This document shows, one piece after another, positions 5,100 to 56,770 of a stretch of DNA of 64,000 nucleotides. The position numbers and the translations under genes were made by a program. Source of the stretch: Bacteroidia bacterium. GTDB lineage: Bacteria > Bacteroidota > Bacteroidia > CAIKAF01. The notes under the pieces were generated by a model. That model saw only the letters and a program-made list of their open reading frames with translations. It ran no database searches and was not told the origin of the DNA. Position 1 is the first letter of the stretch, and each line of letters begins with the position of its first letter. The stretch is from the NCBI GenBank assembly GCA_030427255.1, contig JAUHWY010000001.1, forward strand, positions 48,141 through 112,140, in the 5' to 3' direction.

Positions 5100-5170
5100 C
5101 TATCGTGACTGTTGACGCGTTGTGTTTTCAAGACCTAGTCACTGACCGAAGCGTCAGGGCCTAGCGTTTG
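5100..5170. repeat. REP-like palindromic element (CCTGAC/GTCAGG family), single unit
   Basis: GTTGACGCGTTGTGTTTTCAAGAC...TGACCGAAGCGTCAGGG is near-identical to 31355-31400. Confidence 0.55.
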
Positions 5171-5419
5171 CACGAAGTCGTTGTATAGAATTGCCGTAAG
5201 AACTGAATGACATCAATAGCCTCAAATGGTTTCTGTACCAAAGTGAAATACTCCATAGAAAAACCTTGGCTTCAAGTTGGAGGCTGTTTTAATCAAGCTT
5301 CTCCATCTCATTGGGACAGTATTAGGTTTAATAATAGATGCGCATTTAAGGCTTCCGGTTCATATTGATTGAAGGGATTTAAGCCCGAATCTTAAGCCGT
5401 GGCGGAAGAAAAGCGTTCA

Positions 5420-5452
5420 AAAAAAAAGCCGCTTCCTAGAAGCGGCTTTTTT
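5420..5452. terminator. Bidirectional rho-independent terminator
   Basis: A-run, AGCCGCTTC-CTAG-GAAGCGGCT hairpin, then T-run, downstream of the fasciclin gene. Confidence 0.6.
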
Positions 5453-5470
5453 ATGGACTCCAAAAATCAA

Positions 5471-6259
5471 TTAATTTCCACCTCTGGAGGTAGGAGCAGT
5501 GTTGTTGGTGCCGTCTCCGGTGCGTCCGGTAGGTGCGGTGTTGTTAGAGCCATCACCAGTTCTTCCGGTAGGCTGACCGCCACGAGTGGTACCGCCCTCA
5601 TTGGTGCTTCTATCCACTTCAACATTTACATTGGGGGTGGGATCTACCACCTTAGGGGCTTTTGCTTTTCCTTTTTTGGCAGGAGGAGTCATAACTGCAT
5701 CTACCACGTGCAAAATGCCATTAGTGGCAGCAATGTCGGCTTCTACTACATTGGCTCCACCAACCATGGTGCTTCCTTCGGCCACTTTTACTTGGACTAC
5801 TTTTTCATCAAGAGCATCCAATTCGGTGTAGTTTGCTAAGTCACCGGCAGAAAGGCGGCCACTTACCACGTGATAGGTAAGGATATCGGTCAAGTCTTGA
5901 CGACGCTTTAAGTCGGTTTTAAGCGCTTCAAGCTCAGCAGCGTCAAGTGCGGCAAAAGCTTCATTGGTAGGGGCAAATACCGTAAAGTTCTTTGTGGTAT
6001 CGCTAAGGGTTTCTACCAAACCTGCAGCAGAAATCAATTCCACTAGGGTAGTGAAGCGCTCATCTTTCATAGCGGTTTCAACTACATTTACAGGAGCATT
6101 TGCAGCAGCAATGCTGTCTAAGCGGGCTTGCTCAACAGCAGCCAATGAATCTTGACGTGCTTTTTCAGCATCTGCATCAGATTTGCCTTTACCTCCACAA
6201 GAAGAAAGGGCTACCGCTGTGGCTAGGCCAAAAACGGCTAAAGTGTTGTGAATTGCCAT
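5471..6259 (-). CDS. Fasciclin (FAS1) domain lipoprotein with a Gly/Thr-rich C-terminal repeat tail
   Basis: Lipoprotein signal (ALSSCGG), FTVFAPTNEAF fasciclin motif, and a repeated GRTGDGxNNTAPT tail. Start moved to the internal Met. Confidence 0.8.
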   Translation of the reverse strand: MAIHNTLAVFGLATAVALSSCGGKGKSDADAEKARQDSLAAVEQARLDSIAAANAPVNVVETAMKDERFTTLVELISAAGLVETLSDTTKNFTVFAPTNEAFAALDAAELEALKTDLKRRQDLTDILTYHVVSGRLSAGDLANYTELDALDEKVVQVKVAEGSTMVGGANVVEADIAATNGILHVVDAVMTPPAKKGKAKAPKVVDPTPNVNVEVDRSTNEGGTTRGGQPTGRTGDGSNNTAPTGRTGDGTNNTAPTSRGGN

Positions 6260-6470
6260 AATTACTATTTTGGTTTTTGGTATTGTAAAGCAAAGGTAAC
6301 AAGTGAAGGCACATTTTGGCAAAAAATGGAGCGCTAAGTGAAAGATTTTGTTTAGGGAATTCCGAATTTATTTTTTTTTAGGATTGATGCAACCTACTTT
6401 TAATAGTCTGCGTCTATGGAATAGCAAATAAACATTACTTTTGCTGAAACTTTAAAACAAACCACACATT

Positions 6471-6971: not shown

Positions 6972-6991
6972 TTGCACGGTATTTGCAATAC

Positions 6992-12427: not shown

Positions 12428-12429
12428 AT

Positions 12430-13439: not shown

Positions 13440-13600
13440 GGAGCTTAAGCGCCCCGGATGCGGTGGAAAGCCCGGAGGACCGAAGTCTAGCTTTTGCAGG
13501 CGGAAAGGAGTGGCGCGCAGCAAACTCCCTTTCCGACAAGCAAAAGCAGACTGAGGGACGATGACTTGAAACCGGCAGCCGGAAAAGGCGCCCCAAAAAG
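13440..13600 (+). repeat. GC-rich intergenic element, copy B
   Basis: Aligns along its length with the reverse complement of copy C. Shared blocks are CCCCGGATGC, GGAAAGCCCGGAGG, GGAGTGGxGCGCAGCAAACTCCCT and GGCAGCCGGAAAAGGC. Confidence 0.6.
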
Positions 13601-23859: not shown

Positions 23860-23862
23860 GTT

Positions 23863-24021
23863 TGGCGGCCTTTTCCGGCTGCCCGCTTCAAGTCCTCGGC
23901 CCTCGGCCCGGCAGGCTATACCGCACAGGGAGTTTGCTGCGCTCCACTCCTGTGCGCTAAGCCTGCCAGGGCCTCGTACCTCCGGGCTTTCCGCTTGCAT
24001 CCGGGGCCGGGTGAAAGTACA
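23863..24021 (-). repeat. GC-rich intergenic element, copy C (reverse orientation)
   Basis: Reverse complement aligns with copy B. The central hairpin keeps pairing through compensatory substitutions (CACAGGAG/CTCCCTGTG here, GAAAGGAG/CTCCCTTTC in B). Confidence 0.6.
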
Positions 24022-29456: not shown

Positions 29457-29594
29457 GTAGGTACTCCTAGCTTTAGGAAAAGCTGAATCCTGAATCCCTC
29501 CGGGTGTTATCTCTTGGAGGGATTTAGTGTCTCTTTCCATGTTTTTTCTTGAGGGATTGAAGACCTTTAACCCATGGTTTTTTCGGCGGCGTTT

Positions 29595-29820
29595 CTTTTC
29601 CAGACGCTTCGGTCAGGATTTTAGAACCTGCCGCTACGTGCTGAGGCTTAGGTACTGAGGCTTAGGTACTGAGGCTTAGGTACTGACGCTTAGGTACTGA
29701 CGCTTAGGTGCTGACGCTTACGGTCTGCATCCCTGAGTCAGCATCTTTGATTCAGGGTTTATAACCCCTATGCTTCGGTCAAATCTCAAGCATCTTGTTT
29801 TGACCATAGCGTCAGGAGTT
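29595..29820. repeat. REP/BIME-like cluster: CCTGAC-GCTTCG-GTCAGG palindromes plus a ~6.5-copy 14-bp tandem array (CTGAGGCTTAGGTA, 29637-29723)
   Basis: CAGACGCTTCGGTCAGG at 29601-29617 and GACCATAGCGTCAGG at 29801-29815. The tandem units are seen directly in the sequence. Confidence 0.6.
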
Positions 29821-30044
29821 CCTCATTTGCAATGGGTAAAAAGGTCAAGTTCGCAGTTGAACCGACAGGCTTAGTGTCTATGCCTTAGGAGCTTGTTTAA
29901 TGTTTTACATTAGAAATTAGATAAAGGGATCGGGGCACCCTTGGTTTCCTTTTTTAGGGCAGATTTTTAATTTTTTTTCACATTGTTTCGAGATTTGGCC
30001 AAAAAGGCAGTAAGTTTGGCCTCCTTATTATATACTATAGCTGC

Positions 30045-31665: not shown

Positions 31666-31762
31666 TTTCCTACTTTGGCAACGAGCCAATTTTTACAGCG
31701 GCGTCAGGATTACCCTATGTATTAAAACAGCGTAGTCGATTTAGCCAATGAAGGGAATGAAA

Positions 31763-32892: not shown

Positions 32893-32980
32893 GGTGAGGT
32901 GGGTGAGTGGCTTAAACCAGCAGTTTGCTAAACTGCCGTACTCGAACAGGGTACCGGGGGTTCGAATCCCCCCCTCACCG
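32893..32980 (+). tRNA. tRNA-Ser (anticodon GCT), class II with a long variable arm
   Basis: Acceptor GGTGAGG/CCTCACC, anticodon stem GCAGT/ACTGC with loop TTGCTAA, T-arm GGGGG-TTCGAAT-CCCCC, discriminator G. Confidence 0.7.
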
Positions 32981-32987
32981 CAGCACT

Positions 32988-33062
32988 CGGGGTGTAGCGT
33001 AGCCCGGTTATCGCGCCTGCTTTGGGAGCAGGAGGTCGCAAGTTCGAATCTTGCCACCCCGA
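32988..33062 (+). tRNA. tRNA-Pro (anticodon TGG)
   Basis: Acceptor CGGGGTG/CACCCCG, anticodon stem CCTGC/GCAGG with loop TTTGGGA, T-arm GCAAG-TTCGAAT-CTTGC. Confidence 0.85.
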
Positions 33063-33068
33063 CTTTTA

Positions 33069-33104
33069 CAAGGGTTGTGGTTTTACCATAACCCTTGTTT
33101 TTTT
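33069..33104 (+). terminator. Terminator-like hairpin between tRNA-Pro and tRNA-Arg
   Basis: CAAGGGTTGTGG-TTTT-CCATAACCCTTG followed by T7. Confidence 0.45.
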
Positions 33105-33111
33105 GAGCCAA

Positions 33112-33185
33112 GGTCCCATAGCTCAGCTGGATAGAGCAACTGCCTTCTAAGCAGTAGGTCTCAGGTTCGAATCCTGATGGGACTA
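33112..33185 (+). tRNA. tRNA-Arg (anticodon TCT)
   Basis: Acceptor GGTCCCA/TGGGACT, D-arm GCTC/GAGC, anticodon stem ACTGC/GCAGT with loop CTTCTAA, T-arm TCAGG-TTCGAAT-CCTGA. Confidence 0.9.
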
Positions 33186-33443
33186 CTTTTGTTTTCTGTA
33201 AATTGCTGATTTACAGGTATTGGGAAACTTGCCTTTCTGATTTGTAGACACATTTGTAGACACATTTTCGGGAATTGCTCCAATTTGCGCTACTTGCTGC
33301 CGGCTCGTGTTGCTCTTTTTTATGGTGTCGGTTTAGTTGGCTACCGGCATCCAATCGGTTTTCCCTTGTCGGGTGCATACTCGGTGCCGGTCGCTATTTC
33401 TCCCTACTTCTTCTGTAATGTAATCTTTATGGAGGTAGGCTAT

Positions 33444-34454
33444 TCAATTGCAAAGTCCTTTTATCATTTCGTAAGCATCAGCGAATCCTAGCTCTCCAGC
33501 TTTACTCCAGTCCCAACAAGCTCCGTTTTTGTCTCCGAGATTGTATTTTGAGACACCTCTGTTGAAATAAGCATCTTGATACCCAGGGTCTAGTTCTATA
33601 GCCTTGTTATAATCTGCTATTGCTCCTCTGGAGTCTTCGAGCCTCTCCTTTGCCGCACCTCTGTTGTGATAAGCTTCTTTATACCCAGGGTCTAGTTCTA
33701 TTGCCTTATTACAGTCTGAAATAGCTCCTCTATAGTCTCCGAGATTGTACTTTGACGCACCTCTGTTGTAATAAGCTTTTTTATACCCAGGGTCAAGTTC
33801 TATTGCCTTGTTATAATCTGCTATTGCTCCTTTATAATCTCCGAGGCTTTCCTTTGCCGTACCTCTCATGAAATAAGCGTTTTCATGCCCAGGGTCTAGC
33901 TCTATTGCCTTATTACCGTCTGAAATAGCTCCTCTATAGTCTCCGAGAGTGTACTTTGCTATACCTCTGCTGTAATAAGCGGCTACATAGGAAGGGTTTA
34001 GCTCTATAGCCTTGTTAAAGTCTGCTATTGCTCCTCTGGAGTCTCCAAGTTTGCCCTTTGCCCCACCTCTTATGAAATAAGCGTCTACATACAAAGGGGC
34101 ACGCTCTATTGCCTTATTACAGTCTGAAATAGCTCCTCTATAGTCTCCGAGATTGTACTTTGACGCACCTCTGTGTTCATAAGCTTCTAAATACCCAGGG
34201 TCTAGTTCTATAGCCTTGTTATAATCTGCTATTGCTCCTCTAAAGTCTTCAAGCCTCTCCTTTGCCCTACCTCTTATGAAATAAGCACCTTTATCCCCAG
34301 GGTCTAGTTCTATAGCCTTGTTAAAGTCTGCTATTGCTCCTCTATTGTCTCCGAGATTGTACTTTGCCAGACCTCTGTCAAGGTATTCTTCCGCAGTCTG
34401 ACTAAATACATTGCTACTCCAAAAAAGCAAAAAAATAAAAAATACGTTTTTCAT
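33444..34454 (-). CDS. Secreted TPR-repeat protein (nine near-identical 34-aa TPR units)
   Basis: Signal peptide and a repeated ...GAIADYNKAIELDPGY...AYFxRG... unit. The DNA is internally repetitive. Confidence 0.8.
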   Translation of the reverse strand: MKNVFFIFLLFWSSNVFSQTAEEYLDRGLAKYNLGDNRGAIADFNKAIELDPGDKGAYFIRGRAKERLEDFRGAIADYNKAIELDPGYLEAYEHRGASKYNLGDYRGAISDCNKAIERAPLYVDAYFIRGGAKGKLGDSRGAIADFNKAIELNPSYVAAYYSRGIAKYTLGDYRGAISDGNKAIELDPGHENAYFMRGTAKESLGDYKGAIADYNKAIELDPGYKKAYYNRGASKYNLGDYRGAISDCNKAIELDPGYKEAYHNRGAAKERLEDSRGAIADYNKAIELDPGYQDAYFNRGVSKYNLGDKNGACWDWSKAGELGFADAYEMIKGLCN

Positions 34455-34539
34455 TTTAGTTCGTTATTGGTTAAAAACTCCTTTAGGTTATTTGCAATAG
34501 GCAGTTCCGCTCAATTATTGATGCCATGTCGTTTACTTT

Positions 34540-34845
34540 TTATGGATTGGCTGCTTCTTGTTTGTGTACTTGAAAAACCACTTCCCCCGGCCATGTCTGC
34601 GTCGGGGTATTGTCGCTTTCGGCTGCCGGTGGGGGTGTTACTAAGACCAAAAGCTTAACCATGATTTCAAGGTATGCCTTGGGGTTCGTTTCTGCCAAGG
34701 TATTGAGGCTTGCCTCCATTTTTTCGCCTTGCCCCTGCAAAGCTTGGCCGATTAACTTTCGGGCTTGCTCGGTTAGCTTGTTGGGGACTCCTTTTCGGGT
34801 TCCGCTTTTTCCTGCCTTGGTTCCGGTGTCGGAGTTGAATTGCAC
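34540..34845 (-). CDS. Hypothetical protein (101 aa), island cargo
   Basis: ORF only; no motif. Confidence 0.3.
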   Translation of the reverse strand: MQFNSDTGTKAGKSGTRKGVPNKLTEQARKLIGQALQGQGEKMEASLNTLAETNPKAYLEIMVKLLVLVTPPPAAESDNTPTQTWPGEVVFQVHKQEAANP

Positions 34846-35021
34846 TTTCCGTTACTTTGGTTTGTGTGGGTGTACGTTACCGGGAATGGGTTGTTTCAAA
34901 ATAAATAGCCCAATGATTGACTTTTCCCCTCTACTTGAACGGTGAATAACGCTCATTCAATCTTTAGGCTTGGCCTGCCAAAAATAGGAAATTCCTAGAT
35001 TTAATTAAATGCTTTGGAGCT

Positions 35022-35453
35022 ATGGATAAATTAACAGACGATTGGGTTCAGCTTACAGACGGTCGGGAACCGATTTACTTTTACCTTGTCGAGGAACATG
35101 TTACTACCTTTGGAAAAGATGAGGGTAGGAATGAGCCCATTAGTTACGCTAAAGAATTTAATGGACCCAATTTGCGAAAGTGCAAAGAAGATGCAGAAGC
35201 ATACTATTGGGAAAGGTTAGAGGGCTTAGAAAAGGCCGGTTCCTACTTTTTGCCATTTGCAAGCCATTCAAATTTTGAGTTTGGCAAAAACGCTGCATTT
35301 TCTATTTATCTATCTTTAGTTGAGTACTATGATGAAGACGATTTTTTCCTTCACACTATTTTGGGGGATGATGAAGAGGAAATGGTCGAGGCTAGGGAAG
35401 CAGAAGCGTACATACTTAGCGAAAGGGAGGATGAAGAGGATGAAGAGTTCTAG
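35022..35453 (+). CDS. Highly acidic 143-aa protein with a poly-Asp/Glu C-terminal tail (ends EREDEEDEEF); the only plus-strand island gene
   Basis: ORF flanked by 22-bp direct repeats CGGTGAATAACGCTCATTCAAT (34940-34961 and 35515-35536). Confidence 0.5.
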   Translation: MDKLTDDWVQLTDGREPIYFYLVEEHVTTFGKDEGRNEPISYAKEFNGPNLRKCKEDAEAYYWERLEGLEKAGSYFLPFASHSNFEFGKNAAFSIYLSLVEYYDEDDFFLHTILGDDEEEMVEAREAEAYILSEREDEEDEEF

Positions 35454-35531
35454 CTTTTTTCTAAAATAGCACATAGGTAGGTCCGGTTTTTGGTTGTTTC
35501 CCCCCACTAGTAAGCGGTGAATAACGCTCAT

Positions 35532-36482
35532 TCAATAGCTCGAAGAGCTCGCCCAATGGTTGGCCATTTTCGCATCCTTTAGGCTTGGGAAACAAATCGC
35601 TCGGAGCTCGTTTCTTATTTCGTTTGATGTTTGCGCCCAATGCACTAAGCCGGCATCCTGCAAACGGTTGTTTAGCTTGGTGCGCTCCCTTCTGAATTGC
35701 TGTGGGTTTTCCCGTGAAAGGGAAATGAAATACCGGGGGTTGGTCCATTCTTTGTTCCATGTGGCCACCTCGGACCGGGCCTCTTTTTCTTGCGGCACAA
35801 ATAACACCTCGTTTAGGCTTTCCTCTATCTTATGCCTCAACTTAGATAAACGGCTCGGGTTGGCTAAGTCGGCAAAGGTTGAAATACCCATTTGGTTTAG
35901 TTGTCTCATTTTGGAATAATGCCTTTCCCATCGAATGAGCTTTTCCGGGTCCGTATTTTGCACCTCCATCGCTGTTTCTATTTCCTTGGTGTACTGCCTA
36001 CCTTTTGCGTAAAGCTTGTCTCCAAACTCGCTTTTGGTGGCCACTACTCCAAACTTCCGATCGCTTAACATCGCCTCAAATGGTGTGGATTTATGGAGGA
36101 ACGCTCCTTTCAAGATTTCTTGGGCCCTGTGGCTTGTCCGCACGTTCGCCCCTGCTTCTAAGTTCTCTAATTGGATTTCGTGCGGTGAAACGCCCAAATG
36201 GTCGGAAATGGAAATGAGGCCTTCCAAAAGTTGTCGAAAATCCAAGGGCTTCCAGTTCGCCCCACCTTGTTGGTGCTTATGTATGGAGCCGGAAAGGATT
36301 ATTCTTGTGGGGCTGCCGGCAGCAGGGAAAAAGCCCTTGGCCTTCATGGAGCCAAAATAATACTCCTGCCAAGGGCTTATTTCGCCTGTGCGCTCATTCA
36401 CCACCATTTGCCATTCTATGGCCTCGCTTGCTTCTTTAGGAAACGCTAGGGGGTGAATACTAGCTTTTAGAAAGTCTATCAC
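35532..36482 (-). CDS. Putative replication initiation protein, Rep_trans-like (weak)
   Basis: 316 aa; the segment GDKLYAKGRQYTKE...LIRWERHYSK loosely resembles the RIYNKKQE...HLWRVEIELK region of rolling-circle Rep_trans initiators. Context is int/xis/regulator. Confidence 0.35.
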   Translation of the reverse strand: MIDFLKASIHPLAFPKEASEAIEWQMVVNERTGEISPWQEYYFGSMKAKGFFPAAGSPTRIILSGSIHKHQQGGANWKPLDFRQLLEGLISISDHLGVSPHEIQLENLEAGANVRTSHRAQEILKGAFLHKSTPFEAMLSDRKFGVVATKSEFGDKLYAKGRQYTKEIETAMEVQNTDPEKLIRWERHYSKMRQLNQMGISTFADLANPSRLSKLRHKIEESLNEVLFVPQEKEARSEVATWNKEWTNPRYFISLSRENPQQFRRERTKLNNRLQDAGLVHWAQTSNEIRNELRAICFPSLKDAKMANHWASSSSY

Positions 36483-36514
36483 TATCTTTGATTGCTAGTC
36501 GGTTCAAACGGCTA

Positions 36515-36874
36515 TCAAATTGCACCGAAGAGGCCCATTTGTTGGGCCTTTTCTTTTTTATGGCCGTAGTGCTCAACCGGCAAACCGGTTTCTCGCTCCG
36601 TGTCGATTTTGTTCTCTACACGAACAAGCCCTTCTTTTTTGAGCTTGTTTAGGACGCTGCATAAAGAGGACTCTCTAATTTTGAGAACTTCTTGCAATTT
36701 TAACCTTGAAAACGTGGCTTCCGGGAAAGTCCCTAGGAATTGCAAAATTCTCTCTTTATGCTTTAGGTGCGCAAGCTCTCTCGCATAGGTACGGTAAGCT
36801 TCTAGGGAGTTCCGGTGCATCCTGTGGTTTGGGTGCTTAATTCCCCTACCTAGGGTTTGGTTATCGCTCTTCAT
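36515..36874 (-). CDS. Winged-helix DNA-binding transcriptional regulator (119 aa)
   Basis: wHTH-like segment ...RILQFLGTFPEATFSRLKLQEVLKIRESSLCSVLNKLKKEGLVRV...; 4-nt overlap with the xis-like gene. Confidence 0.5.
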   Translation of the reverse strand: MKSDNQTLGRGIKHPNHRMHRNSLEAYRTYARELAHLKHKERILQFLGTFPEATFSRLKLQEVLKIRESSLCSVLNKLKKEGLVRVENKIDTERETGLPVEHYGHKKEKAQQMGLFGAI

Positions 36875-37140
36875 CGCTTGGCCCTCCCTTTTAATTGTTG
36901 TTCAATCTCGGAGCGCAAGAATAGGACCCTTTTCCCCATCCGGTAGCCTTTAATTACTCCCTGCTTTTCCAGTTTGTTAATGGTCGGGAAACTGATTTTG
37001 AATTGTGCCCGGACTTGGTCCCGGGTCAACCACTTTTCAGTTTGTTGGCCGCTTTCGCTTTGGCCTTGTTCTTTGATGTGCTCGTGAATTTCGAGAACGG
37101 CGTTCTCAATAACTCGCAAACGGTTTTCTAGGTTTTGCAT
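36871..37140 (-). CDS. xis: Excisionase/MerR-type HTH DNA-binding protein (Xis-like)
   Basis: LTRDQVRAQFKISFPTINKLEKQGVIKGYRMGKRVLFLRSEI matches the excisionase HTH_17 pattern. Confidence 0.6.
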   Translation of the reverse strand: MQNLENRLRVIENAVLEIHEHIKEQGQSESGQQTEKWLTRDQVRAQFKISFPTINKLEKQGVIKGYRMGKRVLFLRSEIEQQLKGRAKR

Positions 37141-37184
37141 AATTTAAAAATTGATTTAATGCAAAGCTATTACCGCTCAAAGTC

Positions 37185-37237
37185 AGAAACTTAGGAAACT
37201 TAGGGAGGAAAACTTAGGAAACTTAGGAAACTTAGGT
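37185..37237. repeat. Five tandem iteron-like 9-10-bp repeats, (G)AAACTTAGG
   Basis: Seen directly; located between the orf315 stop and the xis start. Confidence 0.65.
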
Positions 37238-37247
37238 TTTGTTTTAT

Positions 37248-38195
37248 TTAGCTAGATAATAGATTGTTTATCTTTATCAAATAGCCCTTATTTTTCTTTA
37301 GTGGTGAAGTTTCTAGTTTTCGCAAAAGTCTAATAACGGTTCTCTCCGTTACGCCCTTACCGCCACCCTCGTAGTTTATTAAATACTCGCCTATTCTGTC
37401 TAAAGCTGCATTATCTTTAACTAAGTCAGAAACTATACCTGCATTACTCTTAATTCCGTCCAATTTTTTAAGGCCTGTTTTCTCTGTCATAAAATCATAC
37501 CCATTCAATTTCAATTCATTTTTGAAATCATAACCAGTAATCCCACAGAACAAAATGCAAAGGTTTTCCTTGCTCCGGCCGCCCCTCAACCATTCAAAAA
37601 ACTTTTCCCATAATCCATCATTTGATTGAGTTTCCGGCTTAGAATCTTCCCTTCCTTCTTTGTCGGGGTCAACCTCATTTGGTCTAGGTACAACTTCCTT
37701 GGGTTCATTATCGGGGGTCCACCTACTAATTGTTATGCCTTGGTCACTACTATTCAAACTATTTTGTAATTCAAAGAATTGCTCCCATTGGTATTGTTGA
37801 CCAAAGCCAAGGGTTTTCTCTAATTCTTTGAGCCTAGCATGGAATAGTTCAAAGTCAACCGCCCTATCATGGCTCCCAAAAAAACTAATGTACTTTTGGG
37901 CCCAATCCTTTTGCCTTTGAATGGCTTTTTGTACCAGTCTCAACCCTTTTTCATTATTGTTTCCATACTTCCCAATTGTGGCCTCTATTTCCTCTCCAAG
38001 CTTCCTTTGCTTTTCGATTATTTCAGCCTCCCAATCGGTGTTCTTATAAATGGGGAGTATCATTTCTTGCCACCAATCTTTGTTGACCCTAGCCACTTTA
38101 AACGGAGCCCGGGTCGGTTTATAATCCTCGGGGTTTAATAGAATGGTCCAACCTTTAGGGGGCCTTTTTAATTTTAACGGTTCCTTCCTTTTCAT
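37248..38195 (-). CDS. Hypothetical island protein (315 aa), translationally coupled to the integrase
   Basis: 4-nt overlap with the int stop; no recognisable domain. Confidence 0.5.
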   Translation of the reverse strand: MKRKEPLKLKRPPKGWTILLNPEDYKPTRAPFKVARVNKDWWQEMILPIYKNTDWEAEIIEKQRKLGEEIEATIGKYGNNNEKGLRLVQKAIQRQKDWAQKYISFFGSHDRAVDFELFHARLKELEKTLGFGQQYQWEQFFELQNSLNSSDQGITISRWTPDNEPKEVVPRPNEVDPDKEGREDSKPETQSNDGLWEKFFEWLRGGRSKENLCILFCGITGYDFKNELKLNGYDFMTEKTGLKKLDGIKSNAGIVSDLVKDNAALDRIGEYLINYEGGGKGVTERTVIRLLRKLETSPLKKNKGYLIKINNLLSS

Positions 38196-39487
38196 ACCTG
38201 TGCGCTTAATTCCTTGTACTTCTCTTCAAAAGTCGCAAGTATCATTTCGCTATGCTCCCTAGTGGTCATTTTGATGTAATTAAGAAACACCTTCTCCGAA
38301 CTGTGCCCGGTTATGGCCATAATACTAATGGCCGGCACTCCCATTTTGTATAAGTTGGTGGCAAAGGATCTCCTAGCTGTATGGGAACTGATAAAGTGAA
38401 ACTTAGGCCTTTTTATTTCCTCAACTTCAAAGCCTCTATTCTTGGTTGCCTCTACAGTTTCTACAATACCGGCAAGCTTCCCAATTTCCTTTATAAGGCT
38501 GTTTAGGCTTTGGTCAGGCATGTATGGCAATTCAAAGTCGTACTTTTCTAGGATTTTCTTGGTAGGTGAAAACAACGGAATTTCCACTTCGCTATCGGTC
38601 TTTTGCGCCTTTATTACTATAAACTTACTGTCTATGATGTGCTTTTTCTTAACTCGCTTAAAGTCGGAAATGCGTAAACCAGTCCAACAACCAAAAAGGA
38701 AAAGGTCCCGGGCTTTCTCGTATCTTGGCAAATGCGAAAGATTGAGGCCTTCCAGTTTCTTTAATTCATCCAAGGAAAGAAACACGCTATGAACCTTCTC
38801 CTTTATTACCTTGAACTTTTTGTCTTTGAAAATTTCGTTCTTTGAAATTCCCTCTTCGTATGCTGCTCGAAGTATTGCCTTAATGTTTTTGATGTGTTTC
38901 CCTATGTTATTTGGAGTAAACCTTTTCCCGGTGTCCCTGCCTAGTCTATCCCTGCCTTTACAATAAGCTACAAAAGAGGCGTACCAAGCCATGTCGAAGT
39001 CCTCAAAACCAATGTTCGGTTGATACTCTTCTAAAAGCTTTTTCGTTTGCTGATAAGAGTTCACAACCGAATTTTGACTTAATGGCTTGCCGGCAGCACT
39101 AAGCCTTAGTTTGTGCCCTTCCATGAAATGGTCCACAAATGCAAAAAAGCTCTTGGGCGCAAGCTTTGATCCGGGTGCTTGTTCTTGTTTTTTAGGGTTT
39201 AGGAGCTCTCTAAACTCGTCAAGGGTTGGCTCTATGCCTAATTGCCCAAAGGGCTTGTAAAGTTCGGCTATTGCTTCCTTATAAGCTTCTAATCGCTCGT
39301 TTTTGTAAAATGCGTCAGGGTCGCTCCTTCTTACCTTTTGCTGTTTCTCGTTCCAGTCCTTTACCAAAACGGACTCTCCTACATTCTTGGTAAGCTTTTT
39401 ATAATCCCAACGAATTACGGCTTGTATTGACGCTTCATCGCCCTTGGTTCTGGGCCTCAAATAAAAGTGCACGGTCATAACTATCAA
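38192..39487 (-). CDS. int: Tyrosine-type site-specific recombinase/integrase
   Basis: C-terminal catalytic region ...HTARRSFATNLYKMGVPAISIMAITGHSSEKVFLNYIK... (R..H..R..Y) and an N-terminal SAM-like domain. Confidence 0.9.
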   Translation of the reverse strand: MIVMTVHFYLRPRTKGDEASIQAVIRWDYKKLTKNVGESVLVKDWNEKQQKVRRSDPDAFYKNERLEAYKEAIAELYKPFGQLGIEPTLDEFRELLNPKKQEQAPGSKLAPKSFFAFVDHFMEGHKLRLSAAGKPLSQNSVVNSYQQTKKLLEEYQPNIGFEDFDMAWYASFVAYCKGRDRLGRDTGKRFTPNNIGKHIKNIKAILRAAYEEGISKNEIFKDKKFKVIKEKVHSVFLSLDELKKLEGLNLSHLPRYEKARDLFLFGCWTGLRISDFKRVKKKHIIDSKFIVIKAQKTDSEVEIPLFSPTKKILEKYDFELPYMPDQSLNSLIKEIGKLAGIVETVEATKNRGFEVEEIKRPKFHFISSHTARRSFATNLYKMGVPAISIMAITGHSSEKVFLNYIKMTTREHSEMILATFEEKYKELSAQV

Positions 39488-39904
39488 ATTGCATAGCTAA
39501 GTTAGCACATTTGAAATTTGTGGACACATTTGTGGACATATTTTCTTTATTTCATTTTACTTTAAAGAGTCTTACTTAATCGATAATCCACTAATTACAA
39601 GGGGTGCAAAACTAAAAGGCCTTTATTCTCAATCCTTTTAAAATTGAAAATACGAATCCTGATGGGATCACTAAGAAAGTCCACCGAAAGCCTTTAATGT
39701 TCCAAACCTTGGGAACTAGAGCATGCTTGCATGTTCATAGTTCCTAAGGTTTGGAACGATTTGTTGCCAAAGGCAGCAAATGGGCTTTCGGAATTCGGAG
39801 CATACAGGATCAGGCACAACTCCTGATGAGAATAGAGCGGTCGGGATTTTGGAAAGTAGCCGCAATCTCTCCCTCATTTCAAAAAGACTTAGAGAATTTT
39901 AAAT

Positions 39905-40154: not shown

Positions 40155-41846
40155 TTAAGGACAAACTCTAGTAATCTGAATCGATCCGTGGCCTGTGTTC
40201 CAGGAATTTAGGTTTTGAATGCTTCCATTAAAGGAGGACGATCCATTGTATTGTCCGTTGGAAGTAGCCACGTTGGAAGCACCGGAAGCAACAAAAGAGC
40301 CGCCGCCACCGCCGCCGCCGCCGTTGGAGCCGCCACCGCCGCCGCTGTATCCGCCGCCGCCGGCACCTCCGGTGGAGCTGCAGCCACCGGCTCCGCCAAA
40401 GCCTCCTACGGCTTGTGAACCGGGTCCTCCTTGACTTCCATTTACATAGGCTTTTCCAAAGAAGTTATCCGAGCCGTAATTGTACACGGTATTGCCATCG
40501 GTCTGATAGCCCCCGGCGCCGCCTCCGCGGGTGCCGTTGCCGCCACCATTTCCGGAACTACCGCCCCACATGCCTTGGTTGTAGCCGTAATCGGACCAAA
40601 CATTGTTGTTGTCGTTGCAAGTATTGTACCCGTTATTGCCCCTTATTAGCGTGGTGCCATCGCTTCGGCAACCGTTTTGGGCAGAACGACCATCTCCGCC
40701 GCCGCCGCCGGCCACAATAATGGGCTGGCCATTGCTCACCACATAGCTGCCACCGCCGCCGCTTCCGTTATTGTCCACTCCGGTGGCTCCCTGTTGGCCT
40801 ACTACCATTTGCAGGTTTTGACCGGCACTAAGACTAAAATCTGCGGCCAAAACTACACCTCGACCGGGATTAGCACCTCCGCCGGAGGCGCCGCGCACGG
40901 TAATTCGATACACCCCACTGCTGGGAACGGACCAAGTTTGGATGCCATTATTTACAGTGACTACACCGCTTCCATAGCTGCTGTTGCATTGGCTTTGGCT
41001 GGGGCCGTTTTGGCCGCTTGCGCCGCAGGGGGTAAAGCTTTGGTTCACCGCAATGCAAGAAGTTACCTGAACCATGGAGTCCAAGGTGCTGGAACAGCCA
41101 TCGGCGTCGGTAATGGTTAAACTTGCCTGATAGGTGCCTGTATTGGAATAGCTCACCGAGGGGCTTTGCAGGTTGGAGGAAGCCGGAGTACCGTTTTGAA
41201 AGGTCCAAGCATAGGTAGCTCCATTTTGGATGGCACTAAAGGTGGAAGGAGCCTGAGTGCTTATAGGATAAGGGCTAATGGTGTAACTGGAGTCGGGATT
41301 GCTAACATCTACCAACAAAGAGGCGGTTGATGAGCTTCCACAGGCATTTACTGCCACCACCTGAAGGGTTCGCTGGCCTTCGACGCCTGAAAAATTAACC
41401 GTTATGGAGTTAGATCCCTGACCGCTAACCAAGGTGTCTTGTCCGGGAATGGTCCACTGATACGAAGTAGCCCCTTGAACCGGAGCTACAGAAAAGCTTT
41501 TGTTGGCATCGGCGCGGCAAACGTGGCTTTGGCCTTGGATGGAGGAAGGCGTAGGAGGCGGGTTTTGGCAATCGCATACGATGGCTTTCCAACCGGTGGA
41601 AAAATAGGCCTCAATGCAGTCGGTATCGGTATTGTAAATTTGTAGTCCAAAGGGAGGCGTTGGAAGTGCGTTTCTTTGCTGGGTGTTCAATCTTGAAAGT
41701 AGAAATCCACCTTGGGTTGATTGCAGGTCAAGCACTGCGGCCGAGTCGGGTGCCTGATTGGATCCAATGGTTACTCCCTGGGCCATGCCGGAAATGGAGG
41801 AAAAAAGAACGAAAGAAAAAATACAAATACGTAGTGAGTAGTTCAT
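40155..41846 (-). CDS. Secreted protein with Ig/PKD-like repeats and a C-terminal glycine-rich domain
   Basis: Signal peptide and long GGGGxGG runs in the last ~250 aa. Assignment to the Gly-rich domain family that also occurs in ALK/LTK is from memory. Confidence 0.55.
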   Translation of the reverse strand: MNYSLRICIFSFVLFSSISGMAQGVTIGSNQAPDSAAVLDLQSTQGGFLLSRLNTQQRNALPTPPFGLQIYNTDTDCIEAYFSTGWKAIVCDCQNPPPTPSSIQGQSHVCRADANKSFSVAPVQGATSYQWTIPGQDTLVSGQGSNSITVNFSGVEGQRTLQVVAVNACGSSSTASLLVDVSNPDSSYTISPYPISTQAPSTFSAIQNGATYAWTFQNGTPASSNLQSPSVSYSNTGTYQASLTITDADGCSSTLDSMVQVTSCIAVNQSFTPCGASGQNGPSQSQCNSSYGSGVVTVNNGIQTWSVPSSGVYRITVRGASGGGANPGRGVVLAADFSLSAGQNLQMVVGQQGATGVDNNGSGGGGSYVVSNGQPIIVAGGGGGDGRSAQNGCRSDGTTLIRGNNGYNTCNDNNNVWSDYGYNQGMWGGSSGNGGGNGTRGGGAGGYQTDGNTVYNYGSDNFFGKAYVNGSQGGPGSQAVGGFGGAGGCSSTGGAGGGGYSGGGGGSNGGGGGGGGSFVASGASNVATSNGQYNGSSSFNGSIQNLNSWNTGHGSIQITRVCP

Positions 41847-51723: not shown

Positions 51724-51839
51724 AATGCAAAGGTCAACATTTTTTGGAAGATAAAGCGCCCCGGCCTGAACGGACAGCTGACTGAAGTGGGCCTTTAGTC
51801 CGCCTTTGGAGACCGTTGAGGGGAGGCGTTTTCAAGGCA

Positions 51840-51990
51840 GATTAAGGCACGGACAAATGGAAAGTCCGCAGTTTACTAACGGTAAATGAGGACTCCTGAC
51901 GCTATGGTCAGGACAAAAATGCTTGACATTTGGCCGTAACGCAAACCCTGACGCCTTGGTCAGGGCAAGTATTTCACCAGAATAGCTTTC
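51840..51990. repeat. REP/BIME-like composite element, homologous to 31520-31660
   Basis: AGTTTACTAxxGTAAATGAGGAC...CCTGACGC...GGTCAGG...CAGAATAGC is shared. Confidence 0.6.
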
Positions 51991-52101
51991 CCTCAACGGG
52001 CTCCTTTGGCGAGGAGGTGGAGCCTTAAGCGAACCCCCGCAGCCTTAGGCGGACTTAAGGCCCACAAAGGCACTGGAAGTGGAGGACGGAACAGGCGCCC
52101 C

Positions 52102-52134
52102 AAAAAAAAGGCCATCTCGAAAGATGACCTTTTG
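52102..52134 (-). terminator. Rho-independent terminator of the OmpA-family gene
   Basis: GGTCATCT-TTCG-AGATGGCC hairpin and a T-run in minus-strand sense. Confidence 0.55.
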
Positions 52135-52152
52135 TTGTTCGGTGTTTTTTAA

Positions 52153-54258
52153 TTATTCGCCTTCGGGCTTGGGCGTGCCTTCGCCGCCTTCTTCCTCTTC
52201 GTTTTTAGGCGTACCCGGTTTGAAGTCCTCAGAGAGAATTTTCAGCGTTACGCGACGATTGATACGGTGGGCGTCTTCGAATACCTCTTCGCCTTCGCTG
52301 GTGCGGAGCGCGTTGATGTATTCCTCGGTCATAACGGTATCTTTATTGAAGATGTAACCGGTTTTAAGACCTTTCATGTCTTTGAGCAATTTCCGAGGTT
52401 CGGTTTCGCCATAGCCATTAGGTACCAATCTGTTGGGGTCGATACCCGCATCTACAAGGAGACGCACGATTTCGTTGGCACGACGCTCGGATAGTTTCCG
52501 GTTGTATTCGTCGTTACCTCTGGCATCGGTATGGGCACCAATCTCAACTTTCAGCCTTGGGTTGTCTTCAAGAATGATTTGAAGGTTTTTGACGGTATCC
52601 ATGTATTCAGGTTCGACTTCTTTTTTATCGAATACAAACTGAATTTCGAATTCAAGGCTAACCTTGGTTGTTTTGAGGGCAAAATCAGCTACGATGTTGG
52701 TGTCTTTGCAGGTTTTGAGTGGATCAAGACCCATGGAAGAGGCACGGTTTACATCGTTGTAATAGTTTTCTCTGGTGGCCTGCATGTCGTAAGTAACCCC
52801 AAAAGGAATATCCATTTTATAGAAGCCCATTTTGTCGGTAGTGATGGTCTTTTTTTCGCCATCGGGATTGGTGAGTTCTACGGTAGCGTTTTCCAATGGT
52901 TCTCTGGTGTCTACGTCAACCACGGTTCCGCTAAGGGTAATGGTGGCGGTAGGGATGGAGAAAGCCCAAATGTCGTCGAGTCCCCGGCTTCCTTCGCGGT
53001 TTGAGGACAAGTAGCCTCTTTCTTGTCCGCGTTCAAACATGATTCCGAAATCGTCCTTAGGCGAGTTGATTGGAAACTTCATGTTTTCTACGTTACCCCA
53101 GGTTTTGTCTCCGGTGAGCTCGGCCTTGTAAATGTCAAGGCCACCCATACCTTCGGGGCGGTTGGAGGAGAAATAAAGCGTACCGTCGAGTTTGAGGTGC
53201 GGATATACTTCGTTATCGGTGGTGTTGATTTCGTCGCCCAAGTTTTTGGGTTCAACAAAGGTTTTAGCGCGGCGCTGGTATTCGGCCACCCATAAGTCCA
53301 TTCCTCCTTTGGTGCCGGTCATATTGGAGGCAAATACCATATACTTTCCATCTCCTGAGATGGTTGGGTGCGCAGTTACGAAGCTGTCCGGAGCGATTTC
53401 AATGTTTTCCGGTTCTGCCCATTTGGTACCCATGCGACGGGTTTTAAGGATGCGGCATCCGGAGCCGTTTTTCTTGTCTTGGAAACAACGGGTAAAGTAC
53501 ATGTAGCTGTAGCGGTTGTCCATGGCGCCGGCGCCTTCGGAGTGTTCGGAAGATAGACCTTCCAATCGCTTAGGCTCTTTCCATTCATTGGAACGACGTT
53601 CGGCTTCAACCATATACAAATCTTCGGGAACACCGCCATGGGTTCCCCATTCTTTGCCTGAGCCTTTGCCTTTAAACTTTCGGTTGGAGGTGAAAATAAT
53701 TTCGTCTTGACGGCGTGAAGAGATAAAAGGAGAGAACTCCATATCTCTAGTATTCCAGGCTTTAACGTTTTCTACTTGATAACAAGTAGGGTTGTTTTTC
53801 CATTGGATAGCGAGTTCGCAGGATTTCACGCCCAATTCGCCGCGAGGGTCGTTGGGTTCCATTTCCTTGTATTTTTTGAACTCGCTCATAGCCTCTTCGT
53901 ATTCACCTTCGGCTTTAAGTAAGCTAGCGTATTCGTAGATAGCGGCAGCATTTTTAGGGTCGTAGCGCAGCACCTTTTTTAGTTGGCTGGTGGCTCTCCT
54001 GTATTCGTTCATTTTTAGGTAACACTTGGCTACCATAAACGCTACGCAAGCCTTCATGGACTTGTCTTTGCCCACTTTTCCTGAGGCTTTTTGGTAGAGC
54101 TTGATTGCTTCAGGGAAATTGTTGCTGATGTAAGCAAAGTCAGCTTTAGCTGTGCCTTTGTGCCCACATTGCGCCATAGCCGGCTGGGCTGCCATAAGGG
54201 CTAATCCGACCATAAGGCCGGCAGTTCGGGTCAGTGCGTTGGTCTTCGTTCTCGCCAT
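52153..54258 (-). CDS. OmpA-family peptidoglycan-associated protein with N-terminal TPR and TolB-like beta-propeller repeats
   Basis: C-terminal OmpA motif (GAHTDARGNDEYNRKLSERRA); signal peptide. Confidence 0.8.
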   Translation of the reverse strand: MARTKTNALTRTAGLMVGLALMAAQPAMAQCGHKGTAKADFAYISNNFPEAIKLYQKASGKVGKDKSMKACVAFMVAKCYLKMNEYRRATSQLKKVLRYDPKNAAAIYEYASLLKAEGEYEEAMSEFKKYKEMEPNDPRGELGVKSCELAIQWKNNPTCYQVENVKAWNTRDMEFSPFISSRRQDEIIFTSNRKFKGKGSGKEWGTHGGVPEDLYMVEAERRSNEWKEPKRLEGLSSEHSEGAGAMDNRYSYMYFTRCFQDKKNGSGCRILKTRRMGTKWAEPENIEIAPDSFVTAHPTISGDGKYMVFASNMTGTKGGMDLWVAEYQRRAKTFVEPKNLGDEINTTDNEVYPHLKLDGTLYFSSNRPEGMGGLDIYKAELTGDKTWGNVENMKFPINSPKDDFGIMFERGQERGYLSSNREGSRGLDDIWAFSIPTATITLSGTVVDVDTREPLENATVELTNPDGEKKTITTDKMGFYKMDIPFGVTYDMQATRENYYNDVNRASSMGLDPLKTCKDTNIVADFALKTTKVSLEFEIQFVFDKKEVEPEYMDTVKNLQIILEDNPRLKVEIGAHTDARGNDEYNRKLSERRANEIVRLLVDAGIDPNRLVPNGYGETEPRKLLKDMKGLKTGYIFNKDTVMTEEYINALRTSEGEEVFEDAHRINRRVTLKILSEDFKPGTPKNEEEEGGEGTPKPEGE

Positions 54259-54312
54259 GTTTATCCAATTGGATTACTTTGTCCTTTAACGTCCAAATAT
54301 GCAGCATATTTT

Positions 54313-54972
54313 TTAAAATCCCAATTCCGGATACAGGATAAAGACAAGATTTAAGCTTGCAAAGAAGAAAACTTGTAAAAAGAACACGGCCAATGCAATG
54401 GGATTTGACCGGGGAGGGCTGATTTTTTGAAAGGCCCAATGAAATGCCAAGGCAAGCCCAAACCAACATATATAATTGAAGATGGGGATATTTCCTCCTG
54501 CCCAATGCCAATAATCAAAACGTATGGCCACTTGCTCCAAAAGCACATCGTAGGCCGTCATGGTTCCGGCAGCGAGCAATGGCCTCCACATGGAATGAAT
54601 CTTGCGCCATAAGGCCTGTGTCATCCAAACCATAAGCACCCAATTGACCCCAATCATAATTGGGATTCCTTGAATTTTCCAACCCAGCGCCTCTCCGTAA
54701 TGGTAATTTCCAAAAAGAAGTCCCGTATGCACCCCAAGCCATTCGGCAAAGAAGCCTCCGGTAAAAGGTATAAGGACAGCCACCCAACGGGCTTTTGGCC
54801 AAGGATACTCCCAAGCTATAAGCAAACCAAAAGCCAACAAAAGGTTGGCCACGGTGAGCGAGGCGGTTAGTGTTCGGGTGGGAGGGTATATGAGGCCTAC
54901 CAAGCCCACCAAGTAAATTATGGTCAAAAAAAGGATGATTTTTTTTGCCCCAATTTCTTTTAAGCCCTTCAT
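54313..54972 (-). CDS. Multi-TM membrane protein, possibly carotenoid-biosynthesis-associated
   Basis: Hydrophobic 219 aa; 4-nt overlap with the upstream crtI-like gene. Confidence 0.35.
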   Translation of the reverse strand: MKGLKEIGAKKIILFLTIIYLVGLVGLIYPPTRTLTASLTVANLLLAFGLLIAWEYPWPKARWVAVLIPFTGGFFAEWLGVHTGLLFGNYHYGEALGWKIQGIPIMIGVNWVLMVWMTQALWRKIHSMWRPLLAAGTMTAYDVLLEQVAIRFDYWHWAGGNIPIFNYICWFGLALAFHWAFQKISPPRSNPIALAVFFLQVFFFASLNLVFILYPELGF

Positions 54973-56438
54973 GCGTCCGGGATTTCATTGGCTGCGATGG
55001 CAGCAGAATTTAAACATAAGGGAATTCCACCGCCGGGGTGCACACTCCCTCCCGTAAAGTACAGGTTTTTGAATCGACGCGAAAAATTAGGGTGGCGGTT
55101 AAAGGCAGCCATGCGTTGGTTGCTCGCACTTCCATACAAGGCTCCATCAGGCGAGCCGGTTCGGTCGGCAATCCCTTTGGGATTTAAAATCCATTCGGCT
55201 CGAATCTTGGATTCAACCGGTCGATTCAAAATCCGTTCTAACTTTTGCAAGATGCTTTTCCTTGCCTGGTCTTGTGCTTCCCGGCTTAGTGGTTTGTCGC
55301 CCGGAAGGTTGATCATGGTGAACCAATTTTCATGGCCCTTTGGGGCATCTCCTTCCACCTTTTTGCTCGAGATGTATATGTAAATGGTGGGATCGTCCGG
55401 CGCGCCTGATTGGTTTTCCAATTGATGAAACTCCTTTTGGTAATCGTCCGAAAAGAAAATATTGTGGAGTTCCAGCTCTGGAAATGCTCCCTCTATTCCC
55501 CAATTGAAAACCAGAGCCGAGGTGCTTCGGTCGGCCTCTTTTATGCGTTTTGGGAGGGTTTCCTTGGGAGAGAGTAGGGGGTACAGGGCTGCTACATCAA
55601 TGGCACTTACGGTCAAATTCGGCTCTATTTCGTTTTCTTGAGCACAAACCTTGTGAATAACCCCATTTTGGTGATGGATTTGGGTTACGGTTTGCTCAAA
55701 CTTAAATTGCACCCCAAGCGATTTAGCCAACGACTCTAAGCCTTGAGTAATGGAAATCATACCCCCCTTGGGCAACCAGGCCCCTTGGAAGTACTCCAGA
55801 GAAGGAATGGCCTGTAAGGTTGCCGGAGCCTTGTATGGAGAGCTGCCATTGTAGGTGGCGTAGCGGTCAAATAGTTGCACCAGCTTGGGATTGTTCAATC
55901 GGGATGCGTGGGCTTGATGCATGCTTTTAAACACCTGCAATTGGGGAAATCTAGCCACTCCTCTCAAAAAATCTTTGGACAAAAAGGTGTCGGCTTTGTG
56001 CATGCTTCTAAAGAGAAACACCGGAGCTGTAGTATCGTAAATGTCTTTACTTCGCTGAAGTTGCTTCATTACGGCGGCCTTAGAAACTCCAAAGGCTTCC
56101 GCTGCGTCTTGGGCAAATTGATCCGGGTCTGCTGGTGCATCAAAGCGGGTTCCATCTTCCCAGAAATAGCGGCAAATGGGATCTAAACGCTCATATGCAA
56201 ACATTTCCTTTGGTTTTCCGGCCAGTTGATAAAGGTCTTCTACCAAAGTGGGTAAAGTAAACAGACTAGGGCCTGCGTCAAAACGGTAAGGACCGAGTTT
56301 GTATTCGGAAAGTTTGCCTCCGGCAAAGCTGTTTTTTTCCCAAACTTCTACCCGATAGCCTTTTATGGCCAAGCGAATAGATATGGCCAGTCCTGAAATT
56401 CCGGCACCCAATACTAAGGCCAGTGGTTTTTGCCTCAC
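54969..56438 (-). CDS. Phytoene desaturase family FAD-dependent oxidoreductase (CrtI/CrtD type)
   Basis: N-terminal dinucleotide-binding fold LVLGAGISGLAISIRL and the C-terminal carotene desaturase motif. Confidence 0.8.
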   Translation of the reverse strand: MRQKPLALVLGAGISGLAISIRLAIKGYRVEVWEKNSFAGGKLSEYKLGPYRFDAGPSLFTLPTLVEDLYQLAGKPKEMFAYERLDPICRYFWEDGTRFDAPADPDQFAQDAAEAFGVSKAAVMKQLQRSKDIYDTTAPVFLFRSMHKADTFLSKDFLRGVARFPQLQVFKSMHQAHASRLNNPKLVQLFDRYATYNGSSPYKAPATLQAIPSLEYFQGAWLPKGGMISITQGLESLAKSLGVQFKFEQTVTQIHHQNGVIHKVCAQENEIEPNLTVSAIDVAALYPLLSPKETLPKRIKEADRSTSALVFNWGIEGAFPELELHNIFFSDDYQKEFHQLENQSGAPDDPTIYIYISSKKVEGDAPKGHENWFTMINLPGDKPLSREAQDQARKSILQKLERILNRPVESKIRAEWILNPKGIADRTGSPDGALYGSASNQRMAAFNRHPNFSRRFKNLYFTGGSVHPGGGIPLCLNSAAIAANEIPDA

Positions 56439-56584
56439 GCAATGATTTTTGATAAGAACAGGCAGAAAAAGGAATGGTTTAAGGGAATCTCCTCATGCGC
56501 CCTTCGGTTTTGTTGGTGAAGCGAATTAATTGAAGTTGAAATTGCTCTCTGGCTGCTTATCATAAACCAAAAGAGACCGTTGAC

Positions 56585-56770
56585 GAATTGCTATTCCGGC
56601 GGCGATTCTGCCCTGACGCTGCGGTCAGGATAATACACGCTTACAGGAACCTCAGGGGCTGCGTTGCGTTCAAACCTCAAGCATTTTGCTCTGACCTTAA
56701 CGTCACGAGGCCCTTCGATTTGTACCTGCCTTAAACCCCTGACGCTTCAGTCAGGAACTACGTCTTAAGA
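56585..56770. repeat. REP/BIME-like cluster (CCTGACGCTGCGGTCAGG, CCTGACGCTTCAGTCAGG)
   Basis: Begins GCTATTC, the reverse complement of the ...CAGAATAGC terminus of the other copies. Confidence 0.55.

Follow-up and report, generated by a model that had tools for sequence, protein, structure and literature searches.

Bacterial transposable elements of the miniature inverted-repeat type (MITEs) that carry terminal inverted repeats (TIRs) and target-site duplications (TSDs) of fixed length include Correia/NEMIS of Neisseria, the pneumococcal RUP, the cyanobacterial Nezha, and BrickBuilt of Porphyromonas. The combination of TIRs with a fixed TSD is the signature of DDE cut-and-paste transposition, whereas the single-strand transposition of the Y1 enzymes of IS200/IS605 and of the REP-associated tyrosine transposases (RAYTs) produces no duplications. 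Repetitive extragenic palindromes (REPs) and the bacterial interspersed mosaic elements (BIMEs) and REP doublets forming hairpins (REPINs) associated with RAYTs in Escherichia coli and Pseudomonas are 18- to 20-nucleotide (nt) palindromes that occur in both orientations, in inverted doublets, and in mosaics of variable copy number (PMC3116915, PMC6006769). Here we analyze a 64-kb stretch of DNA from a Bacteroidia bacterium (GCA_030427255.1, contig JAUHWY010000001.1, positions 48,141 to 112,140; hereafter the window), in which five loci, E1 to E5, were found by alignment in a common orientation to be copies of one modular non-coding element rich in such palindromes. The element is best read as a new family among the bacterial MITEs, a kind already known.

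The palindrome shared by the loci is the 18-mer CCTGACGCTTCGGTCAGG, a hairpin of the form CCTGAC-GCTTCG-GTCAGG. When up to three mismatches were allowed, it was found 12 times in the window and not once in dinucleotide-preserving shuffles; 7 of the 12 are exact matches to CCTGAC-N6-GTCAGG. The hairpins start at the following positions.

Hairpins 1 to 6: 5141, 29600, 31382, 31409, 31436, and 31463
Hairpins 7 to 12: 31510, 31613, 51895, 51947, 56612, and 56738

A sequence-only reading of the same DNA had proposed a dense palindrome family at six intergenic loci. This count confirms a repeat family of extragenic palindromes, while the number of loci is five rather than six, because two loci had been entered twice. 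When 18 copies of the element were turned into an nhmmer profile, it returned exactly these five matches in the window and no others, and all 12 hairpins fall inside them, leaving none free-standing.

E1, 5105 to 5223, plus strand: nhmmer E-value of 4e-16 for the left part and 0.008 for the right end; left end GTGACTGTTGACGCGTTGTGTTTTCAAG intact, a single hairpin at 5141 to 5158, right end decayed
E2, approximately 29553 to 29868, minus strand: degenerate copy, nhmmer E-value of 1e-10, without blocks a and b but with blocks c, d, and e of the scaffold described below; ends decayed; a hairpin at 29600 to 29617 and a hairpin remnant at 29795 to 29819
E3, 31346 to 31669, plus strand: full-length copy of 324 bp with six hairpins; perfect 5-bp TSD CTACT at 31341 to 31345 and 31670 to 31674
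E4, 51809 to 52003, plus strand: full-length copy of 195 bp, nhmmer E-value of 3e-48, with two hairpins at 51895 to 51912 and 51947 to 51964; perfect TSD CTTTG at 51804 to 51808 and 52004 to 52008
E5, 56573 to 56791, minus strand: full-length copy of 219 bp, nhmmer E-value of 8e-48, with hairpins at 56612 to 56629 and 56738 to 56755; TSD CAAAA/CAAAG, matching at 4 of 5 positions

Genes are commonly followed by GC-rich hairpins, and a chance or low-complexity artifact, or a set of unrelated look-alike rho-independent terminators, might be suspected; that either accounts for the loci is nevertheless vanishingly improbable. A chance or low-complexity origin is ruled out by the 12 hairpins against none in shuffles and by profile E-values down to 1e-48. 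Pairwise identity between copies outside the hairpins is 79 to 82% over 60 to 107 nt, and since the loci share sequence far past the hairpins and lack T-runs, the objection of unrelated terminators, which the sequence-only reading had raised against itself, did not hold.

Copies from related genomes were brought in by an exact-match scan for the 18-mer across one genome per species, which yielded at least 110 stretches from at least 61 assemblies; the hairpin is multicopy far outside the window, which supports the sequence-only reading on this point. With the window copies, these gave a set of 16 intact copies, namely E3, E4, E5, and 13 elsewhere. An 18-bp TIR, GAGACCGTTGACGCGTTG, opens every intact copy and its reverse complement closes it. 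Two longer modules that had been noticed in the window, GTTGAyrCGTTGyGTTTTCAAGAC and a shared terminus ...CAGAATAGC, are both real, the first being the left end of the element and the second the sub-terminal part of its right end. The 5-bp direct repeats that flank the copies are TSDs. They are perfect in 11 of the 16 intact copies and differ in sequence from copy to copy, with a chance rate of about 1/1024 per copy for a perfect 5-mer flank, and a further two copies match at 4 of 5 positions. Outside the window, the perfect TSDs are CTTAA, TAAGC, CACCT, CATAG, ATCTT, AGGGG, GTTTT, AAATT, and TAAAG.

Very probably, then, the five loci are MITE copies that were mobilized in trans by a transposase making 5-bp staggered cuts; a DDE-type enzyme encoded elsewhere would be the candidate. 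TIRs, TSDs, dispersal, and differing insertion points were all seen directly. As in the MITEs named above, the element is small (93 to 516 bp), non-coding, multicopy, and dispersed in intergenic DNA, with TIRs, a TSD of constant length, an overall fold-back structure, and differences in insertion between related genomes. It is unlike them in having a sequence of its own, a 5-bp TSD without a strict target consensus, and an interior made of a variable number of copies of one 18- to 20-nt hairpin that is also found outside the element across the phylum.

Among the matches listed, the TIR-bearing MITE was found only in this genome, CAZJFM01, and JAGYKD01, the last of which (Flavobacteriales M30B58) has at least 11 loci with copies; CAZJFM01 has at least three such loci, and four metagenome contigs carry copies. 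Both MITE-carrying related metagenome-assembled genomes (MAGs) are labeled or inferred to be Flavobacteriales. One CAZJFM01 contig, L106 (CAZJFM010000091.1), is syntenic with positions 52073 to 59985 of the window at 87 to 94% nucleotide identity. In the spacer that corresponds to that of E5, L106 carries a copy in the same orientation but 9 bp further along, with the TSD AAATT instead of CAAAA/CAAAG and without an 85-bp internal stretch; E5 and the L106 copy are therefore independent insertions or the outcome of excision followed by reinsertion. E4 has one 25-nt hairpin unit more than its L106 counterpart, and the spacer that holds it measures 430 bp, compared with 60 bp in a distant relative (60% protein identity) that has the same gene order from an OmpA-like to an AIR-synthase-related gene. 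No exact empty site was recovered in these comparisons between related genomes. In a short-read assembly of the same strain, a contig breaks off within each of the two tandem arrays of the window (see below), and another contig spans E5 with the same spacer length.

E4 is itself nested in a second palindromic element, unrelated to the MITE, which is flanked by CTGrAAGTGG, is present in a single copy in the window, and is missing at the orthologous site of L106.

Second palindromic element, 51787 to 52065: arms at 51787 to 51804 (GTGGGCCTTTAGTCCGCC) and 52048 to 52065 (GGCGGACTTAAGGCCCAC)

CAZJFM01, the source of L025, L032, L097, and L106, is labeled "Candidatus Competibacteraceae" (Gammaproteobacteria). 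Contigs L032 and L097 carry the same MITE, and L106 is 87 to 94% identical to a window of Bacteroidota type; by its sequence, this label or the binning behind it looks wrong.

Several results weigh against mobilization as a MITE. No TSD is recognizable at E1 or E2, both of which have decayed ends, and a matching TSD is missing in three more copies (L044, L062, and L084). The window, the 110 genome loci, 120 metagenome loci, viral contigs, and plasmids yielded no autonomous insertion sequence (IS) bounded by these TIRs, and the TIR could be placed in no IS family. We infer transposition from structure and comparison. The searches behind these statements were as follows. No transposase was found among the larger open reading frames (ORFs) of the window scanned against Pfam, and the only recombinase in that scan was a tyrosine integrase in a separate island. 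Scanning metagenomes for the TIR gave the 120 loci, of which 4 are true MITE copies and nearly all others are chance matches in high-GC coding DNA; viral contigs gave no TIR matches and two hairpin matches, and a plasmid BLAST search gave no match.

The sequence-only reading had taken the clusters for REP/BIME elements with a cognate RAYT elsewhere in the genome. In such a system, the RAYT would move the hairpins, as REPs, in single-stranded form, and the clusters would be BIME-like mosaics. Much about the hairpins does recall such systems: they are extragenic palindromes of 18 to 20 nt in both orientations, often head to head (e.g., 31463 to 31482 with 31508 to 31527), and in the 110 other loci they lie mostly 10 to 50 nt past stop codons and are overrepresented where genes converge and underrepresented where they diverge. 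In addition, Bacteroidetes have their own TnpA-Y1 subclass, 2.6, which is flanked by "atypical" hairpins (PMC6006769). We nevertheless consider a REP/BIME origin unlikely. All 12 window hairpins lie in units bounded by TIRs, and RAYT/Y1 transposition is disfavored because these units carry 5-bp TSDs. There is no GTAG, GTGG, or GCTAG foot beside the window hairpins and no CGTC foot either, and none of approximately 70 listed subclass 2.6 REPs resembles the hairpin (PMC6006769, Table S1). While those REPs are species specific, the 18-mer is identical across four orders. A RAYT motif search found no ORF with an HUH and Y motif among the 2,411 ORFs of the window and the 110 hairpin-bearing loci, and all-against-all clustering of the ORFs of the 110 loci revealed no recurrent protein family beside the hairpins, only housekeeping genes.

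CGTC-tagged REPs, whose hosts include a member of the Bacteroidetes, have no dedicated transposase (Di Nocera et al. 2013, PMC3733652). They are defined by an unpaired terminal CGTC, an 8- to 9-bp stem starting with A/T pairs, a 4- to 5-nt loop, and a CCA tail (PMC3733652). The window hairpins are likewise short palindromes in extragenic DNA that have no transposase gene associated with them, and CGTC is present in GCGTCAGG; unlike CGTC REPs, however, they have a GC-rich stem of 6 to 7 bp and a 6-nt loop, with the CGTC lying across loop and stem, and no CCA tail. On grounds of sequence and architecture, we rejected both the published subclass 2.6 REPs and the CGTC REPs as the identity of the element.

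Within the MITE, the copies form a size series on a constant scaffold (93, 120, 130 ... 324 bp; range over 18 copies, 93 to 324 bp); an assembly gap interrupts the largest copy, of 516 bp. The element lacks coding capacity. From left to right, the scaffold of blocks a to e and its slots for hairpin modules are as follows.

Part 1: left TIR and TGTGTTTTCAAG, then slot HP1
Part 2: block b, ATTAAGGCACGGACAAATGGAAAGTCC, then slot HP2
Part 3: block c, GCAGTTTACTAnTTGTAAATGAGGA, a small apical hairpin, then slot HP3
Part 4: block d, AAAACTTGAGATTTGGCCGTAACGCAAAC, which is block b in inverted and diverged form, then slots HP4 and HP5
Part 5: block e, ACAGGATCGCCGCCAGAATAGC, and the right TIR

Each of the slots, up to five in number, takes a module of 25 to 27 nt consisting of a 7- to 8-nt leader and the hairpin CCTGAC-GCTTCG-GTCAGG. 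It is mainly in the occupancy of these slots that copies differ, the modules being present, absent, nested, or tandemly amplified. HP1 and HP5 are filled by 27-nt modules with the leader TTTATAAT or ACGnAGT, and HP3 is filled by the same module type in inverted orientation. In several copies, a variant hairpin, TGCTGAC-GCTGCG-GTCAGCA, is nested in the loop of another hairpin. The insert in HP2 is bracketed by a 5-nt direct repeat, AGNCC, which co-varies among copies, and the modules of HP1, HP3, and HP5 are clean indels of 26 to 27 nt without duplication. A grid search of offsets over 148 distinct contexts revealed no dominant signal of a universal TSD of the hairpin unit.

Two tandem arrays, also proposed by the sequence-only reading, were recovered with Tandem Repeats Finder. 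Their existence was borne out, with slightly different figures: 5.7 units of 14 bp instead of about 6.5, and 3.9 units of 27 bp instead of 4.

14-bp tandem array inside E2, 29641 to 29720: 5.7 units, 96% matching
27-bp tandem array of the HP1 module inside E3, 31378 to 31481, plus strand: 3.9 units, 96% matching

The 14-bp unit, CTGACGCTTAGGTA, is a single hairpin arm plus the loop, and the 27-bp unit is the HP1 module, with a 7-nt leader and a 20-nt hairpin. Array copy number had been expected to vary, and it does so among copies of the element: the HP1-type module is repeated four times in E3 and once, twice, or at least seven times in others. Judging from the indel pattern, the gain and loss of hairpin modules would be due to slippage or to recombination of near-identical palindromes with each other, and possibly also to an insertion process of their own.

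The fold-back structure of the element as a whole stems from its scaffold, that is, from the TIRs and from block d being an inverted copy of block b. For E4 as single-stranded DNA, the fold has -43.9 kcal/mol (z = -6.3), its TIRs pair, and its hairpins project as side arms; E5 as RNA folds with z = -3.8, again with paired TIRs. The inner TIR, GTTGACGCGTTG, partly resembles the hairpin arm and loop, CCTGACGCTTCG, with TGACGC common to both; this resemblance could be a shared protein-binding motif or a coincidence.

Outside the MITE, the hairpin is a Bacteroidota-wide motif and not MITE specific. Of the at least 61 assemblies with the exact 18-mer, 55 are labeled Bacteroidota, from the orders Bacteroidales, Flavobacteriales, Chitinophagales (including Saprospiraceae), and Cytophagales; with the one assembly labeled Competibacteraceae yet syntenic with the window, about 56 are Bacteroidota among the matches listed. 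The five remaining matches among those listed lie in high-GC DNA, at least partly in apparent coding sequence, and are compatible with chance, for which about 17 matches were estimated over the whole database. Conservation across loci is confined to the 18-mer, a C at position -1, and A/G at position +1, the flanks being unrelated overall. Viral contigs almost entirely lack the hairpin. No description of its conservation across orders and within unrelated structured RNAs was found in the searchable literature, and a literature search for the exact sequences gave no relevant match.

The settings of the 18-mer in these genomes are diverse. Flanked by A-runs and T-runs, it is terminator-like after tRNA-Phe and other genes of Flavobacteriales (L004, L006, L023, L035, L046, L082, and L100). 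In many Bacteroidales it caps a longer stem, CCCCCTGCCCC[HP]GCAGGCCTAAAGGGGG, and it also lies inside a Chitinophagales repeat. Two Bacteroidales/Rikenellaceae MAGs (L076:3538-3922 and L103:3076-3460) have it as helix P12 of their RNase P RNA, and at four loci, of which a single genome accounts for three, it takes the place of the variable apical stem of Flavo-1 RNA or caps that stem. In Bacteroidia MAGs, it is the first stem of a conserved element of approximately 140 nt with four stems, in which an outer stem, ACCACCyCCC/GGGGTGGT, surrounds the 18-mer hairpin and three further hairpins. Compensatory changes were found in five pairs of this element, in a stem other than the 18-mer hairpin, and the element has no Rfam match.

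Flavo-1 RNA with the 18-mer: L033:7338-7415, L067:837-907, L078:2055-2125, and L010:310-392
Four-stem element of approximately 140 nt: L002:2898-3036, L017:464-599, L073:1285-1426, and 10 more loci

At two loci of the 140-nt element, L070 and L088, an extra small GC palindrome was seen in each, at the same point, after GTACT.

Such occurrences bear on another possibility raised by the sequence-only reading, namely RNA-stability and terminator modules. In a wider form of this view, the window copies would be functional RNA modules, transcribed as terminators, 3' stabilizers, or small RNAs and repeated through selection and not through mobility. The 18-mer with A- and T-runs does look like a bona fide bidirectional intrinsic terminator in several Flavobacteriales, it contributes a helix to RNase P RNA and to Flavo-1 RNA, and each copy in the window is found either downstream of genes or in a spacer of tandem genes (E1 and E3 between convergent genes; E2, E4, and E5 between tandem genes). 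For the window copies, however, a purely functional RNA role was not supported, and we regard selection on RNA as the origin of the repetition as quite improbable. No T-run follows any window hairpin, and ordinary terminators already adjoin E1, E3, and E4. The hairpin loop is found in both orientations in RNA, and across the 110 loci neither strand is clearly favored with respect to the upstream gene (52 against 39). Differences in the stem among copies are mismatches and not compensatory changes. The elements gave no Rfam match at gathering score, only sub-threshold noise at E-values up to 10, and the TSDs and shifted insertion points indicate mobility. Because the copies sit in intergenic DNA, mostly just past 3' ends, transcribed hairpins could still act as RNA-stabilizing or attenuating structures as a by-product of MITE insertion.

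The breadth of these settings also permits a more tentative proposal, which we consider possible although rather doubtful: the hairpin with its leader, the 25- to 27-nt module, would be a phylum-wide micro-mobile or actively homogenized element that is copied into hairpins already present, at their tips, and the MITE would be one carrier of it. Other carriers may be terminators, other repeats, the 140-nt element, and, among structured RNA genes, those of RNase P RNA (helix P12) and Flavo-1 (apex). CTGAC-N6-GTCAG would then be recognized by a conserved protein, and the resemblance between TIR and hairpin arm hints, at the level of sequence, that the same protein may bind both.

A parallel is offered by cyanobacteria. 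Small dispersed repeats (SDRs) were reportedly described in heterocyst-forming cyanobacteria by Elhai et al. in 2008, and short tandemly repeated repetitive (STRR) insertions occur in cyanobacterial RNase P RNA. Like SDR and STRR sequences, the hairpin modules are units of approximately 21 to 27 nt that are present or absent within conserved sequence, nested in MITE-like elements, and located inside structured RNA genes. They differ in phylum and sequence and in that the unit is a near-perfect hairpin, for which no general TSD was found. The nesting of SDRs in MITE-like elements recalls the present case and may be a closer parallel than REP mosaics. A cyanobacterial origin of the repeats (SDR, STRR, or highly iterated palindrome 1 [HIP1]) was rejected, as the window has no HIP1 sites (GCGATCGC) and its gene content is Bacteroidota-like. 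The genes of the window, which has a GC content of 46%, are housekeeping genes of Bacteroidota type, including those for valyl-tRNA synthetase, a 609-amino-acid (aa) S1 protein, and carotenoid synthesis, together with genes for proteins sorted by the type IX secretion system, TonB receptors with a CarboxypepD_reg domain, and DUF1573.

Several other repeats were noted in the window. A third repeat family (…GGAAAAGGCGCCCCAAAAA…) occurs in both orientations at 13500 to 13600, 23861 to 23957, and 52074 to 52106 and in L045 at approximately 1020 to 1150; copies in JAGYKD01 contain the 18-mer hairpin, whereas those in the window do not. Directly after a tRNA-Ser/Pro/Arg cluster (32893 to 33186), 30-bp direct repeats, ATTTGTrGACACATTTGTrGACAyATTTTC, at 33240 to 33269 and 39516 to 39545 flank a segment of approximately 6.3 kb. 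With a tyrosine integrase (38192 to 39487), a TPR protein, and two 315-aa ORFs without a Pfam match, the segment from 33240 to 39545 resembles a small integrated element that has att-like repeats. The gene for the TPR protein (33444 to 34454, minus strand) contains a 102-bp tandem repeat of 8.3 units (33531 to 34378, 76 to 81% identity), which corresponds to the TPR units themselves. GCC/GCCGCC-rich low-complexity repeats at 40296 to 40767 lie within a gene for a PKD-domain protein (40155 to 41846, minus strand) and encode a Gly-rich stretch.

For the window, the outcome is an annotatable element in place of the REP/RAYT reading. Its ends, its module map, and the length of its TSD make it possible to mask the element throughout a genome and explain assembly breaks in these MAGs, and array copy number and insertion sites are usable as strain-typing markers. 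The occurrence of an exact 18-nt hairpin across four orders and in unrelated structured RNAs is a more interesting lead than the MITE. If the hairpin spreads by itself or has a conserved factor, it would be a Bacteroidota counterpart to REP/RAYT or to the cyanobacterial SDR/HIP1 systems.

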